The notes under the pieces: model-generated
What the model saw: only the letters and a program-made list of their open reading frames with translations
Databases searched by the model: none
Told to the model about the DNA's origin: nothing
Position numbers and translations under genes: made by a program
Shown: positions 13,274-25,384 of the stretch, piece by piece
Position numbering within the stretch: position 1 is the stretch's first letter
Layout of the letters: the number at the start of each line of letters is the position of its first letter
Assembly: GCA_964016885.1 (NCBI GenBank)
Contig: OZ024740.1
Location: 325,128,001 to 325,192,000 of the forward strand
From: Eledone cirrhosa
Taxonomy: Eukaryota
Direction: 5' to 3'
DNA: 64,000 nt

Positions 13274-13740
13274 GTTTGCTCATTTATTTGTTTCCTGTAT
13301 CGCTGTCAACTTTATAATACTTTTTACATTTATTTTTATTCTTATGTGACGGCCTATATGGTTGTCTGTTGTTTTATATTTTTATTATATTTTTATTATT
13401 ATTTTTTTTCTTATAATTAATTGTGTGTGCGTATGTAGGTGTGTGTACATATATCTATATTTGTGTGTGCGTATGTATGCGTGTATATATATGTGTGTAT
13501 GTATGTGTGTGTATGTACGCGTGTATATATGTATAATTATGTGTGTATATGTATATATATATATATATATACATGTGTGTGTGTGTGTGTGTGTTTGTGT
13601 ATGTGTCTGTATGTTTATGTATGGATATGTGGATATATATGTGTGTATGTATGTATGTGTATGTATATATATGTGTGTGTATGTATGTATATGTATGTGT
13701 ATTTGTACGTGGATGTATATGTGTATGTATGTATATATTT
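13274..13740 (+). repeat. Direct repeat, copy 1 (copy 2 at 18852-19290), flanking the Naiad element
   Basis: catttatttgtttcctgtatcgctgtcaa..cttatgtgacggcctatatgg..gtatttgtacgtg is present at both positions with scattered differences. Confidence 0.85.
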
Positions 13741-13979
13741 ATATATGTGTATGTATATATATATGTGTATGTATATATGTGTGTGTATGTATATATATAT
13801 ATATGTGTGTGTGTGTGTGTGTGTGTGTGTGTGTGTGTGTGTGTGTGTGTGTGTGTGTGTGTGTGTGTGTGTGCATGTGTGTTTATTTTTCCTTTCCTTC
13901 TTCATTTCCCAGCCTCACTTTCATATAGATTATATTTTTATTTTTAAAATCCAATGTGAATAAATACACCAGGATTTTT

Positions 13980-14036
13980 TCATTCTGATGATTGAAAGCA
14001 AATCTTGTTTGCTTTCAAGAAACCACTGGTAAATGA
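13980..14036 (+). ncRNA. Type I hammerhead ribozyme upstream of the Naiad ORF
   Basis: Stem I TCATT/AATGA; core CTGATGA; perfect 11-bp stem II TTGAAAGCAAA/TTTGCTTTCAA; GAAA; stem III ACC-act-GGT; GUA cleavage triplet. Confidence 0.9.
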
Positions 14037-14251
14037 TATAACTTTCTTATGTTGTTTATTAAATAACTATTAAGCTCTGTAACCTACATAGAGCACTCTT
14101 TTTTCCTGGACTTTTCTGACGGAATTACTTCATTTATACAGCTCCAACCGGGATTGATTGAAGCATATTCTATATTACATATATAATTGGCACTTTCCAG
14201 CCCGATTAGTTGAGCACTCTACAGTTTTCAGGAATTTAACCAACATACACC

Positions 14252-16386
14252 ATGGACCTTTATGAATTGGATTATTCAATCAAAAATATACCTACTCCTT
14301 CCAACACAACTTATACCAAACTGCTTATAGATAAAATCGAACAAGTCGTTAAAAGAATGAGATGGAAAGCAATGGTTTACGATGGACTATTCAGTGCTGA
14401 TACTAATAATTGTTTTGACATAAAATCCCGTAAATACCCACCTAGAATTAAAGACATGGCCAACTTCGAATTAGACCTTGTTAATTTAATTAGTGATATA
14501 ACATTTCGTAAGTACAATAATAATTTTCAAACTAAACTGTCTAACAATATTTCTAATTTTAAAAATTCTACAAACACTTTTGTTCTTTCCGATAAAACTA
14601 AAAATCTCTTTTAAGTTAATAGTATTTTATATAACCAACTTTTAACTAATAGTATCACCAACAAATATCAATTAACTAATAATAACACCTACAATACTAT
14701 TAATAAAGAAGCTAAAGAACTAGCTAGTTCTTTAAAAATAGACAACCGGATTGAAAGCCTAGCTAAACGTAAAGCATATATTACCCTTAAAGACCATAAA
14801 TTAGACTTTACTAATCGACCTAGTTGTAGACTGATTAACCCGGCTAAATCCGAAGTTGGCCTTGCAAGTAAAAAAATCTTAAGAAAAATAATTCTCCGAA
14901 TTAGAACTAAGACTGACTTATCACAATGGTTAAATACATCCTCTGTTATTTTTTGGTTTAATAATATACAAGGTAAAAATAAGTGTAGATTTACCCAATT
15001 TGATATTGTTGATTTTTACCCCTCTATTATGTTTCCTTATTAACTAAAGCCTTAGATTTTGCAAGACCCTTCATTAATATTTCTAAATTAGAAGAAGACA
15101 TTATCTTTCATGCTAGAAAAACTCTACTCTTTACTAATGAAAGTATTTGGGTTAAAAAGTCAAACCCTGAAAACTCTTTTGATGTTGCAATGCGTTCATA
15201 TGACAATACGGATGTGTGTGACTTAGTAGGATTATTCTTTCTCCACACCCTTAAAGAGACATTTCCTTCCCATAATATCGGTTTATACCGTGACGACGGA
15301 TTGGCAATTTCTCATACCACCAACGACCATAACCTTGATAAATTCCGTAAAGATTTAATCAATACTTTTGCTAATCTTAATCTTAAAATTACTATAGATA
15401 CGAACCTTACCAATGCTAACTTTCTTGACATTAATCTTGATCTACTTACTGCCTCTTTTAAACCTTATCATAAACCTAACGAAAATCTTAGATATATACA
15501 CAAAGAGTCTTGCCATCCCCCTATAGTTTTTAAAAATCTTATTCCCAACATTAGCCGTAGGATTTCTACCTTATCTTCGTCTCTAGACATTTTTAACAAA
15601 GCCGCCCTTATTATAATAAAGCCCTTAATAACAGCGGATTTACAGAACACATTAATTATTTACCTACTCCTCCCCCTAAAACTAACCACAATAATAGGAA
15701 AAGGAAAATTATTTGGTTTACACCCCCCCCCCCTTCTCTCTAACTGTCAAAACTAATGTAGGGAGGAAATTCCTTGACCCCTTAGGCAAACATTTTCCTC
15801 CTAATCATAGATATTATAAGATATTTAATAGAAATGTAGTTAAAATCAGTTACTCTTGCTGCCCATCAATGAAGTTTAAAATCACCAATTCTAATCGTAC
15901 GAGAATAAATCCAGGATGCAGTTGCAGGAAGCCGGATGAATGCCCATTACAGGGCAAATGTAACACCAAATCCGTTGTATATGAGGCCAAAGTGACACCT
16001 TTAATTAAGAACCAGCCAGCCAGGAGTGAACGATATGTTGGCATGACTCAGGACAGGTTTAAAATCAGGTTTTATGCACATGTCGCTTCTTTTAAAAACT
16101 CCGATAAAAGAACAACAACGGCTCTCGCAAATAAGGTGTGGGAATTAAAGGATAAAACATCCCATACTCTATCGATTGGTCTATTATAGACCATTCGAGG
16201 GATTACCAAAGGGACACAAAGAATTGTTCTTTGTGTACCACTGAAAAATTTAGGATTTTACAAAGGTTGAAAGCCACTTCAACTTGCCTGAAATCCAAGA
16301 CCGAGATCTTCAGATGTTGTCCTCACCTGAAATCACATCTGATCTGTAACTGGATTGACATTCCTACGATGACTCAACGACCTTGA
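14252..16386 (+). mobile_element. Naiad-type Penelope-like retroelement ORF (RT + GIY-YIG endonuclease), disrupted
   Basis: Motifs MRWKA, ITLKDHK, RLINPAKS, FDIVDFYPSI, GLYRDDGL, FLDI, CSCR..CPLQGKC, VVYEAKV..YVGMT..RFKIRFYAH and CSLC. One TAA stop (14612) and frameshifts near 15030, 15610-15730 and 16158. Confidence 0.93.
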
Positions 16387-23102: not shown

Positions 23103-23496
23103 AATAAACGAAGCTAAATTTTAATCATTTGACTTTTATTTAACTTTATTTTACACTACTCCGGAGTAACCAAACCAACCTGCGCACTTCGTCGAGTGCT
23201 CCAGCCTGCATACTGAGGTGTTGGTATACAACCAACATAAACTCAAAATCTATATATATATATATATATCTGTGTGTGTGAGAAAAACCACAGACCCTCC
23301 ATCTTAACTCACCTTTTGAAAAGCAGAACTGCGAAACCGGTAAAGGAACCAAATAAATTTTTTTTTTTTTTTTTTAAATAAGACTCCAGCTGCATTTTCG
23401 ATTTCATCTCTTTTTCTTTATATATATATATATATATATATATATAAGAGACGTAAGATAAGAAAATTATAAAATTAACTTACTTACTAAAATATC

Positions 23497-23578
23497 ACTT
23501 CCAACTAATTAGTTTCTGGAATGGAGTAGATACATCTTCCGAAGAAGGTGTGGAGAAACATCCCGTCATCAGGAAAGT
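23497..23578 (-). ncRNA. Type I hammerhead ribozyme
   Basis: Reverse complement of 24274-24355. Confidence 0.82.
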
Positions 23579-24273
23579 CTATTCTCATATAAGCTTCGAG
23601 GCAAAGCGAGGACTCTGGAAGCTTACTAAAAAATAAATCAGTGAATAGGAAATAGCAAAGCGTGGACTTACTTCCTAGCCATTGAGAAAATCACTGCCTC
23701 TGTGTCTGTGGCAAATTCAAAAAGAATCGAGCACGTGACATCGAGGTCAATCGGTGGAAAGTGGGTTGTTAATAAGACAGCGGCCAGCCTACTACCGTAG
23801 CAGCAGTCATGGCCAGTATTGCTCGACAAATATTTTGGAGATAATAATAAAGAATGTATATCTAGTAACATATATATACATACAAATGCATATCGATGCT
23901 AGCAAATATATAGGTTTTGTCTTAATAACATTGTGGTTCAATGCATGGGGTTGCAGAACAATAATATAAGAGACGTAAGATAAGAAAATTATAAAATTAA
24001 CTTACTTACTAAAATATCACTTCCAACTAATTAGTTTCTGGAATGGAGTAGATACATCTTCCGAAGAAGGTGTAGAGAAACATCCCGTCATCTTCCACCG
24101 ATTGACCTCGATGTCACGTGTTCCATTCTTTTTGAATTTGCCACAGACACAGAGGCAGTGATTTTCTCAATGGCTAGGAAGTAAGTCCACGCTTTGCTAT
24201 TTCCTATTCACTGATTTATTTTTTAGTAAGCTTCCAGAGTCCTCGCTTTGCCTGGAAGCTTATATGAGAATAG

Positions 24274-24355
24274 ACTTTCCTGATGACGGGATGTTTCTCC
24301 ACACCTTCTTCGGAAGATGTATCTACTCCATTCCAGAAACTAATTAGTTGGAAGT
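24274..24355 (+). ncRNA. Type I hammerhead ribozyme with an extended stem II capped by UUCG
   Basis: Stem I ACTTTC/GGAAGT; CTGATGA; GGGAT/ATTCC with inner ACAcCTTC-TTCG-GAAGaTGT; GAAAC TAATTA GTT. Confidence 0.82.
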
Positions 24356-25384
24356 GATATTTTAGTAAGTAAGTTAATTTTATAATTTTCTTATCTTACG
24401 TCTCTTATATTATTGTTCTGCAACCCCGTGCATTGAACCACAATGTTATTAAGACAAAACCTATATATTTGCTAGCATCGATATGCATTTGTATGTATAT
24501 ATATGTTACTAGATATAAATTCATTATTATATATATATATATATATATATATATATATATATATATATATACATATATATATATATATATATATATATAT
24601 ATATATATATATAATAAGGAGTTGACGGACCCAGCATATTTATCAATGCATGGACCGGTTGTATGTCAGCGTACTCAATGGGCAATGTAAGATACATTCC
24701 CAGAGTATACACACTGACTCACACATACCATAACAATCACATCTCCGCACACATATTAGAAGGAATAAATATATACTATTGAATACCTACACATAACATA
24801 TTACCCATATATTCCCACACTGCTTACACCCATACCATCACTAACAACCATTACACTGATTTACTACATTTATGCAAGTATACCATAGCATTGAGACACA
24901 CTTATGTACACATACCATAAATATCAGATATACACATACCATACATATCAGATATACACCTATAACTCTACAATTTACACATACATTCTACCACGACCCA
25001 ACAAATACACATTACTAACTACACACACATGTATATATATACCACTGCATGACTACACGTACATATTTATATCTACACCTGCATATACAATCCATTACTA
25101 ACCAAAAATATATACTATAGTCTACACATATATATATACTATTGCATACCTACACATACACACACATTCCATCATGAACCATCACACATACACATGCTAC
25201 TAGCTACATACTACATATCACCATTGACATACATAATCCACTACTACCCACCACTTAAACACATACCTACAATGAATTAAACATACACAACGGCATTCTA
25301 CCACTCATACACATTTATACGACGCACCGCCATATAACATATAGAGCCACTCCTACTTACACATACATATACTACTACCTCTAC

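Follow-up and report, generated by a model that had tools for sequence, protein, structure and literature searches.

A hammerhead ribozyme island in Eledone cirrhosa as a probable pile-up of Hydra-clade Penelope-like element ends and retrozyme-like monomers

The dense group of hammerhead ribozymes at positions 13274–24527 of a 64-kb window (the whole stretch of Eledone cirrhosa contig OZ024740.1 that was analyzed) is probably a nested pile-up, in (TA)n, of seven insertions, designated families A to G. Four of these would be ends of Hydra-clade Penelope-like elements (PLEs), while families B and C are likely to be retrozymes that depend on Hydra reverse transcriptase (RT)-endonucleases for copying in trans.

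A strict type I descriptor found six motifs in this interval and none in the rest of the window, compared with a mean of 0.005 in 200 dinucleotide shuffles. The first-pass annotation had claimed at least 10 hammerheads, eight of which pass a relaxed descriptor (13985+, 17640−, 18068+, 18547+, 22941−, 23053+, 23572−, and 24280+) against 0.01 in shuffles, a density far above the shuffled control that it had asked for. The remaining two, 19752− (family E) and 20114− (family F), have full cores and damaged stems and are decayed copies of families whose members pass at other loci. An NUH triplet, the CUGANGA/GAAA core, and stems I–III are all present in seven of the ten; the other exception is the family D copy, which has GUG at the cut triplet versus GUA in the family majority and is thus predicted to be dead. 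In 10 family C copies picked by homology, 97.8% of stem cells are paired and two stem II pairs are changed on both sides. On this sequence evidence, the crowded type I hammerheads of the island are confirmed as genuine. The type I fold with palindromic stem III was also borne out, as were several unrelated sequence families, with the ten motifs reducing to seven insertions because three pairs are the inverted arms of one insertion each. Lunse et al. are said to have described dimeric PLE hammerheads in 2017. Three sites annotated earlier as partial copies proved to be a family C arm truncated within the core (24019), an older C-subfamily remnant (22693), and the 3′ half of an eighth family that has 59 pattern matches among the fetched loci (16880). 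Rfam gave no hammerhead among the matches listed (150 of 384, swamped by microsatellite matches), and hammerheads were likewise absent from the listed matches of further Rfam searches.

Table 1. Features of the island, in window coordinates; plus-signed ends are distances in nt past the predicted cut
Feature	Positions	Strand	Remarks
Family A 5′ pseudo-LTR (copy of the microsatellite-rich 3′ UTR with hammerhead and tail)	13206–14138	+	83% direct repeat with 18792–19387; matches 3′ ends of intact copies
Hammerhead A	13980–14036	+	Predicted cut after 14031; family ends at about +35 and +107
Family A tail hairpin 1	14074–14094	+	Predicted
Family A second hairpin, imperfect	ends near 14217	+	By eye
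Hydra-clade RT-GIY-YIG ORF	14252–16383	+	Broken by one stop and three frameshifts; relatives with intact 710-aa frames occur elsewhere
Family A 3′ UTR, first part	16384–17300	+	
Eighth hammerhead family, 3′ half	16870–16915	+	Same UTR context in locus L090
Family B two-armed insertion	17380–18228	both	ORF-less 478-nt monomer; cores 17640(−), 18068(+); arms end at +202 (left) and +92 (right)
Family B hairpins	17449–17479, 17830–17848	−	
Family D, 5′-truncated end of another Hydra element	18272–18730	+	Core 18547, GUG triplet
Family A 3′ UTR, resuming past nested B and D insertions	18734–19405	+	Terminal hammerhead not found
Family E decayed hammerhead	19636–19905	−	Core 19752; belongs to the end of an element about 1 kb long or longer
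Family F, 3′ end of Hydra element	19985–20585	−	Core 20114; tail hairpin 20024–20043
Further family, decayed hammerhead and tail hairpin	22270–22480	+	By eye
Older C-subfamily remnant	22489–22719	−	77–79% to C
Family G two-armed fold-back of Hydra 3′ end	22842–23250	both	Cores 22941(−), 23053(+); ends at about +54 and +153; hairpin 23158–23197
Family C two-armed insertion	23442–24530	both	ORF-less 522-nt monomer; cores 23572(−), 24280(+); partial copy 24019; ends at +61 and +181
Family C hairpins	23936–23959, 23821–23841, 24415–24438	−, −, +	

The ORF of the island had been taken for a Naiad; its motifs place it in the Hydra clade. Family A has a single ORF in which the RT precedes an endonuclease (EN) of the GIY-YIG type at the C-terminus, and 710-aa frames are found in most of 20 fetched loci. 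The EN motifs begin at about residue 555 of 710, rather than at the N-terminus as in Naiads, and the intact protein carries RMRWKA, SDKT, CSCRKPDEC, CSLC..E, and CCPH, which supply the Hydra diagnostics RWK, DKT, a CxCX5C linker, and CxxC and CxH around E/N, with no CCHH. DKT instead of DKA and the canonical type I fold at 13985 likewise depart from the Naiad pattern, and both the canonical hammerhead near the 3′ end and insertion into (TA)n agree with the Hydra clade. Pfam gave no match for the Hydra ORFs, and the motifs were read directly from the sequence. A first look at the genome yielded 18,716 RT candidates, many with 714-aa frames, and intact 710-aa copies are numerous genome-wide. A Hydra-like ORF lies collinear and directly upstream of the hammerhead in families D, F, and G (tblastn, 25–58% identity); the family F protein has 50–55% aa identity to that of family A, and the family G unit reaches about 4.1 kb in locus L309. 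Judged from these sequences, autonomous, ORF-bearing Hydra elements are the source of families A, D, F, and G, which represent their truncated 3′ ends. Family G had been considered as a retrozyme until extended loci revealed its Hydra ORF. The earlier description of the elements as mostly non-coding therefore fails for four of the seven families and suits B and C, which are retrozyme-like; conversely, the possibility that every family is a truncated PLE end is true of those four and untrue of B and C.

Families B and C form tandem arrays of up to 3.9 units with periods of 476–483 and 522 nt and no ORF longer than 78 and 67 aa, respectively. Consecutive complete hammerheads are observed for C in locus L021 (3.9 units) and others, and for B in locus L044, where two cut sites lie 478 nt apart. 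The end of a Hydra ORF was found within 1.2 kb upstream of none of 33 B and none of 69 C motifs; the same holds for all 63 motifs of family G, yet G is autonomous when extended, so the assignment of B and C rests on the closed periodic monomers. One type I hammerhead per ORF-less monomer of a few hundred nt, arranged in tandem, is the organization of non-LTR retrozymes, and B and C are likely to be circularly permuted, retrozyme-type monomers. A genome search scoring 40 DNA candidates gave no autonomous parent sharing B or C sequence among the fetched loci. No target-site duplication is visible in either family, and because their ends fall within (TA)n any duplication would be hidden. Contigs of run X1 contained many family C variants, with loose ends at 24410, which is the short end; run X4 gave one contig. 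For family E, about 0.8–1 kb of upstream sequence is common to two to three loci and an ORF link is absent in four extended loci; reading it as a SINE whose 5′ end is fixed became less tenable, as some copies extend further upstream.

Evenly spaced samples of the genome (60 × 10 kb) contained 47 motifs by the relaxed descriptor in 600 kb, with a mean of 0.78 and a maximum of 4 per 10 kb, which extrapolates to a genome-wide total of roughly 150,000–330,000 hammerheads. The dense island reported at first pass is thus real, but it forms the upper tail of a genome-wide phenomenon. Its eight motifs in 11 kb do exceed the sampled maximum, as might be expected of a special locus such as a selected ribozyme island, and a 1.33-kb derivative of family F, repeated at least 10 times in tandem on C10, is reminiscent of DNA-level satellite amplification. 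Both explanations are very improbable and largely refuted by dispersion, since the families occur on many different chromosomes, their copies truncated randomly at the 5′ side and ending at fixed 3′ points, motif counts are overdispersed and track (TA)n content (rho 0.48), which in the island is twice the mean, and B and D interrupt the UTR of family A. The (TA)n targeting proposed earlier is well supported, with (TA)4 present within 250 nt downstream of 46 of the 47 sampled motifs versus a 24% background. In a nested pile-up, new (TA)n flanks and the TA-rich UTR of family A would provide fresh targets and hence clustering.

The insertions often consist of two back-to-back arms that stop at two fixed points past the cut site. 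One long and one short end were observed in 12 of 13 two-armed copies of B, 21 of 22 of G, and 9 of 14 of A, where the exceptions include three short+short and one long+long; family C gave 10 of 18 by adjacent pairs and 14 of 18 by outermost ends. The C and G queries required a long arm, so that the partner arm alone is informative there, and the B query was unbiased. The arms overlap by 0–6 nt at their junction (12 of 13 in B, 17 of 18 in C), and in B, C, and G the private variants common to both arms exceed every one of 1000 permutations. Such sharing could alternatively come from gene conversion between the inverted arms.

A bulged hairpin is predicted behind the short end in all seven families, with compensatory changes in its outer pairs, and B, C, and G have a second one predicted behind the long end. 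A descriptor of the hairpin was positive in 12 of 27 clusters versus 4.5% in shuffles, and the other 15 lacked it. The same hairpin can be recognized by eye in the tails of the published elements Hydra-2_Amil (coral) and Hydra-1_Ajap and Hydra-2_Ajap (sea cucumber). The motif GAGYRCT had been considered as a palindromic DNA site; this reading was abandoned, since the motif forms the 3′ strand of the hairpin, and B and C hold the fold with other letters. Since B and C carry the same predicted hairpins and insertion shape, they were likely copied by the same enzymes, and the modeled hairpin likely ties them to Hydra proteins. Their mobilization by a non-Hydra element (Naiad, Poseidon/Neptune, or a LINE), with the hairpin reflecting no more than Hydra pseudo-LTR descent or a promoter element, is unlikely: Naiads do favor (TA)n and yield inverted, tailed insertions, a different PLE type is present in the window at 47623–48689, and the outer hairpin pair of B and C is unlike that of A, D, F, and G, but the ends of B and C lie 1–5 nt from the hairpins at both sites, and cephalopod Naiads are described as long-inactive remnants whereas C copies are 97–98% identical and Hydra frames are intact. 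A Penelope-like RT-EN, as suggested at the outset, is the probable mobilizer, although the adjacent ORF belongs to the Hydra clade and not to Naiad.

For copying by Hydra enzymes, we propose that a protein dimer would cut both (TA)n strands and recognize two RNA hairpins, with one DNA end primed just 5′ of each. Copying would then proceed backward across the hammerhead junction, whether uncut or re-ligated, and microhomology would join the two cDNAs. The template of B and C is likely a self-cleaved, circularized monomer, with an uncut tandem transcript nearly as good a candidate. A broader model, in which paired, deeply conserved bulged hairpins would act as Hydra start signals, one per end of a (TA)n double-strand break, and be parasitized by small circular retrozyme RNAs equipped with just the two hairpins and a hammerhead, with about 200,000 hammerheads placed in this genome, is close to an even proposition but on the doubtful side; the 126,247 hammerheads reported for axolotl are fewer than that figure. 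Alternatively, no circles are involved, and B and C are ORF-deleted pseudo-LTR units derived from uncut read-through of tandem loci, the hammerhead serving to trim or being a passenger. This is a possibility of some substance, if short of likely. Poseidon can do without hammerhead cleavage and mainly uses uncut RNA as its substrate, a point that counts against the circle step; insertion is normal in ribozyme mutants, and RNA-seq reads starting at the cut are absent in the available part of that report (PMC11167929). In addition, eight of nine Xenopus retrozyme dimers failed to cleave, most arms here are shorter than 1.7 units, the C cut junction, considered as a ligation-error hotspot, is not a hotspot of variation (62 junctions listed), and the 3.9-unit array L021 has one stem I change throughout all units. 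However, compensatory changes preserve cores and stems across C subfamilies, a circle makes long arrays easier, and circular retrozyme RNAs are documented in coral, mussel, and axolotl (PMC7229834).

The system is not undescribed, as had been supposed: metazoan non-LTR retrozymes (Cervera and de la Pena 2020, PMC7229834), their proposed PLE origin (Li et al. 2026, bioRxiv 10.64898/2026.07.22.740005; no mollusc among the samples in the accessible text), a hammerhead-bearing Hydra element of Octopus bimaculoides, Hydra-1_Obim (Craig et al. 2021, PMC8557442), and two-site initiation are all published. The hairpin link was not found in the literature searched, which gave no report connecting Hydra-clade PLEs with a hairpin (Repbase's 21 Hydra families and the bioRxiv supplements lay outside the comparison) and none of twin priming with Penelope and hammerhead; "hairpin" and "stem-loop" are absent from the accessible main text of PMC8557442. 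For octopus hammerhead ribozymes, Craig et al. was the sole relevant report in that search, and an O. vulgaris repeat paper (PMC13282606) mentions neither hammerhead, ribozyme, nor hydra. The cited literature, as available, asks which enzyme mobilizes animal retrozymes and whether PLEs copy circles or RNA that has not been cut. With intact Hydra ORFs, young monomers that lack an ORF and have exactly predicted starts, and a candidate RNA signal all present in this genome, both questions can be put directly to the test in vitro. As Rfam misses the motifs and the Pfam copy used misses the protein, a repeat class of very large size would escape annotation.

In the published descriptions as available, the closest system is the Hydra clade of C-terminal EN+ PLEs (PMC8557442), which has the same protein motifs and EN position as family A. 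Its elements likewise bear a canonical hammerhead, insert into (TA)n, and form partial tandems whose 5′ copies are inverted; a tail may or may not be present. The nearest member is Hydra-1_Obim, which family A resembles by eye, with DSAD common to both in the RT 4 region. Craig et al. describe few Hydra families outside cnidarians, all under 3 kb with tails of 30–40 nt, whereas at least four families occur here, with units up to 4.1–4.3 kb, tails of 70–150 nt, and over 18,000 RT candidates. Naiads share the (TA)n preference, pseudo-LTRs, and inverted copies, but their N-terminal EN, CxC linker, DKA, and IFD are all absent here, and they lack the canonical hammerheads that are present here (PMC8557442). 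Like non-LTR retrozymes, families B and C have a single type I hammerhead in a monomer that lacks an ORF and measures a few hundred nt, are poor in GC, occur both scattered and in tandem, and have PLEs as proposed helpers; they differ in monomer length (478/522 nt), (TA)n targets without visible target-site duplication, two arms with fixed unequal ends, and Hydra-type hairpins, and they are known from DNA, whereas circular RNA has been demonstrated for published retrozymes. The purified Poseidon PAc protein of Anolis, from another clade, nicks and extends both strands from two internal starts in a stem-loop (Frangieh et al. 2024, PMC11167929), similar to the two starts predicted here downstream of the hammerhead, bounding the tail, with extension of both strands by a predicted dimer. 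The Poseidon sites share one AC-rich stem-loop inside the ORF, whereas those predicted here lie 70–150 nt apart in the 5′ UTR, each before its own predicted bulged hairpin, one per arm.

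The first-pass annotation had listed at least ten type I hammerhead ribozymes between positions 13274 and 24527. The motifs are real, and their density is not that of shuffled sequence: a strict descriptor found six hammerheads in this region against 0.005 per shuffle (200 shuffles), and a relaxed descriptor passed eight of the ten against 0.01 in shuffles. The two that failed (cores 19752(-) and 20114(-)) have decayed, and their families include other members that pass; the copy of family D (one of seven hammerhead-bearing insertion families, A to G) with its core at 18547 has lost the NUH triplet. 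As independent insertions the ten reduce to seven events, because three pairs are the inverted arms of one insertion each. Among ten homology-picked copies of family C, 97.8% of stem cells are paired and two stem II pairs are altered at both paired positions, which is supporting evidence only, since related rows can exceed the tool's shuffle control. Elsewhere in the window, hammerhead-like minimal motifs whose stem III is nearly absent occur at 51324(-)/51342(+), an inverted pair, and at 52540(+), and we take them to resemble minimal Penelope-type hammerheads; a second family F hammerhead stub lies at 55433(-).

The elements had been thought mostly non-coding, which is true of B and C but not of A, D, F and G, which have Hydra ORFs, located upstream of the hammerhead in D and F. 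An ORF-less status for G was ruled out once the family was extended to a 4.1-kb unit with a long UTR and an ORF. The B and C monomers are self-closing units (periods 478 and 522 nt), form tandems of up to 3.9 units and contain no ORF longer than 78 aa; their circular folds (-129 and -134 kcal/mol against -94 and -102 kcal/mol shuffled) are each more stable than 40 shuffles. In a few copies family E continues for at least 0.8 kb further upstream, and no ORF was found there. A tandem array elsewhere in the genome (C10 17950600-17963100; L318, L319) comprises at least ten 1.33-kb units derived from family F that retain just the EN end, UTR and hammerhead; it is possibly a stage between autonomous element and retrozyme.

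In all families examined except F, 3' ends fall preferentially at two points past the predicted cut. Since these points are both beyond the cut, each insertion entails copying across a junction that is uncut or has been re-ligated. Arm junctions in B and C overlap by 0-6 nt, and contig ends in an independent run fall at the C short end. Private variants are common to paired arms of B, C and G beyond all 1,000 permutations, consistent with a single source RNA, with gene conversion a possible contributor.

Preferred 3' ends (nt downstream of the predicted cut), two-armed copies with one long and one short end (C and G queries demanded a long arm, the B query did not) and first-look candidates (40 scored per family search; not copy numbers)
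Family	3' ends	One long and one short end	First-look candidates
A	+35/+107	9/14	
B	+92/+202	12/13 (24 loci)	1,667
C	+61/+181	10/18 adjacent pairs, 14/18 by outermost ends (27 loci)	2,302
D	about +63/+200		2,446
E	about +70/+215		1,419
F	mainly +101		4,756
G	about +54/+153	21/22 (46 loci)	261; 1,773 with upstream query

The short end is followed in all seven families by a bulged hairpin (outer stem of 4 bp, bulge of 1-2 nt, then an inner stem), with outer-stem pairs that differ between families. In 12 of the 27 clusters, half or more of the copies carry it; the corresponding figure for shuffles is 4.5%, and the reverse strand as a control gives two clusters. Behind the long end, B, C and G have another hairpin, and an imperfect one is seen by eye in A. 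The same fold is visible by eye in Hydra-2_Amil, Hydra-1_Ajap and Hydra-2_Ajap, and the word GAGYRCT, one half of this hairpin, recurs both in tails here and in published Hydra tails. Tail remnants of further families, with this word and without a hammerhead, lie at 13100-13160, 17050-17130 and 12640-12670.

Purified Poseidon protein, a predicted dimer, is described as nicking and extending both DNA strands, initiating at two internal positions, which delimit the tail, with ribozyme cleavage not needed in that account (PMC11167929). We propose by analogy that Hydra proteins probably cleave (TA)n and initiate a separate cDNA ahead of each hairpin; microhomology would then join the two cDNAs as the arms of one insertion. 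Since nothing but the hammerhead and the two hairpins is kept in B and C, these monomers may well borrow Hydra proteins. Circular templates have been proposed for Penelope-like elements (PMC4209133) and circular RNAs shown for retrozymes (PMC7229834); circular templates and uncut tandem transcripts are both compatible with the data here. The system offers a testable mechanistic lead.

Sixty evenly spaced 10-kb samples of the 3.0-Gb genome gave 47 descriptor matches, grouped in 18 clusters, where five shuffles gave 0-2; the bootstrap range of 0.5-1.1 motifs per 10 kb corresponds to about 150,000-330,000 genome-wide. Published counts, obtained with other descriptors, are >6,000 in coral, ~5,000 in mussel and 126,247 in axolotl. 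Stem III is exactly palindromic in 34 of the 47, and (TA)4 lies within 250 nt downstream of 46 (background 24%), upholding the proposed accumulation in (TA)n tracts. The island has eight motifs in 11 kb against a maximum of four per sample, and twice the mean (TA)n content; the family A 3' UTR is broken by B and D insertions and continues from 18734. The island is a pile-up of insertions, not a special locus. The 16880 fragment comes from an abundant eighth family, whose copies fold back immediately upstream of GAAA and have often lost the first core half (loci L021, L044, L051, L076, L115, L134), and older hammerhead stubs are captured in TA-rich tracts of family A 3' UTRs at L111:5774-7700 and L090. 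The genome also carries several multi-unit molluscan haemocyanin clusters (C1 173.7-173.9 Mb; C26 21.9-22.0 Mb), one apparently an inverted duplication; together with the likeness of the ORF to an Octopus element, they make a cephalopod host likely.

The suggestion of an undescribed retrozyme-like system does not hold for the class as a whole. Hydra elements with hammerheads (PMC8557442), retrozymes (PMC7229834), their PLE origin (bioRxiv 10.64898/2026.07.22.740005) and two-site initiation (PMC11167929) are already published; our literature searches found no cephalopod retrozymes, paired hairpins, one-end-per-arm rule or report of genome-wide hammerhead abundance.

The window copy of the ORF has one stop and three frameshifts. 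An RT-piece search of the genome returned 18,716 first-look candidates, with 714-aa frames in many of those scored. The intact protein has RT followed by GIY-YIG, with RWK, DKT and CxCX5C present and CCHH absent, the features listed as Hydra-clade diagnostics in PMC8557442 section 11, and by these protein diagnostics we assign the window ORF to a Hydra-clade Penelope-like element. Of 8,000 proteins scored, 1,339 were relatives, the best 120 being 41-58% identical and nearly all without a name; in the bivalve Solemya velum, an annotated protein of 1086 aa (P0002) also contains a Hydra-type ORF. Other elements in the window are a Penelope-like element at 47402-49349 (RVT_1 and GIY-YIG matches, 317-nt inverted repeats on both sides), a LINE at 30214-35687 that encodes APE and RT domains and has a further ORF upstream, a truncated related copy at 28879-29738, and a 5S rRNA-like copy at 41260-41377 that scores above the Rfam gathering cutoff and is probably a pseudogene or SINE head. 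The adjacent ORF had been attributed to Naiad, an assignment that we replace: Naiads, as described in PMC8557442, carry their EN at the N terminus and are without canonical hammerheads, whereas here GIY-YIG follows RT and canonical hammerheads are present. Compared by eye, the ORF is similar to Hydra-1_Obim, a published element from Octopus.
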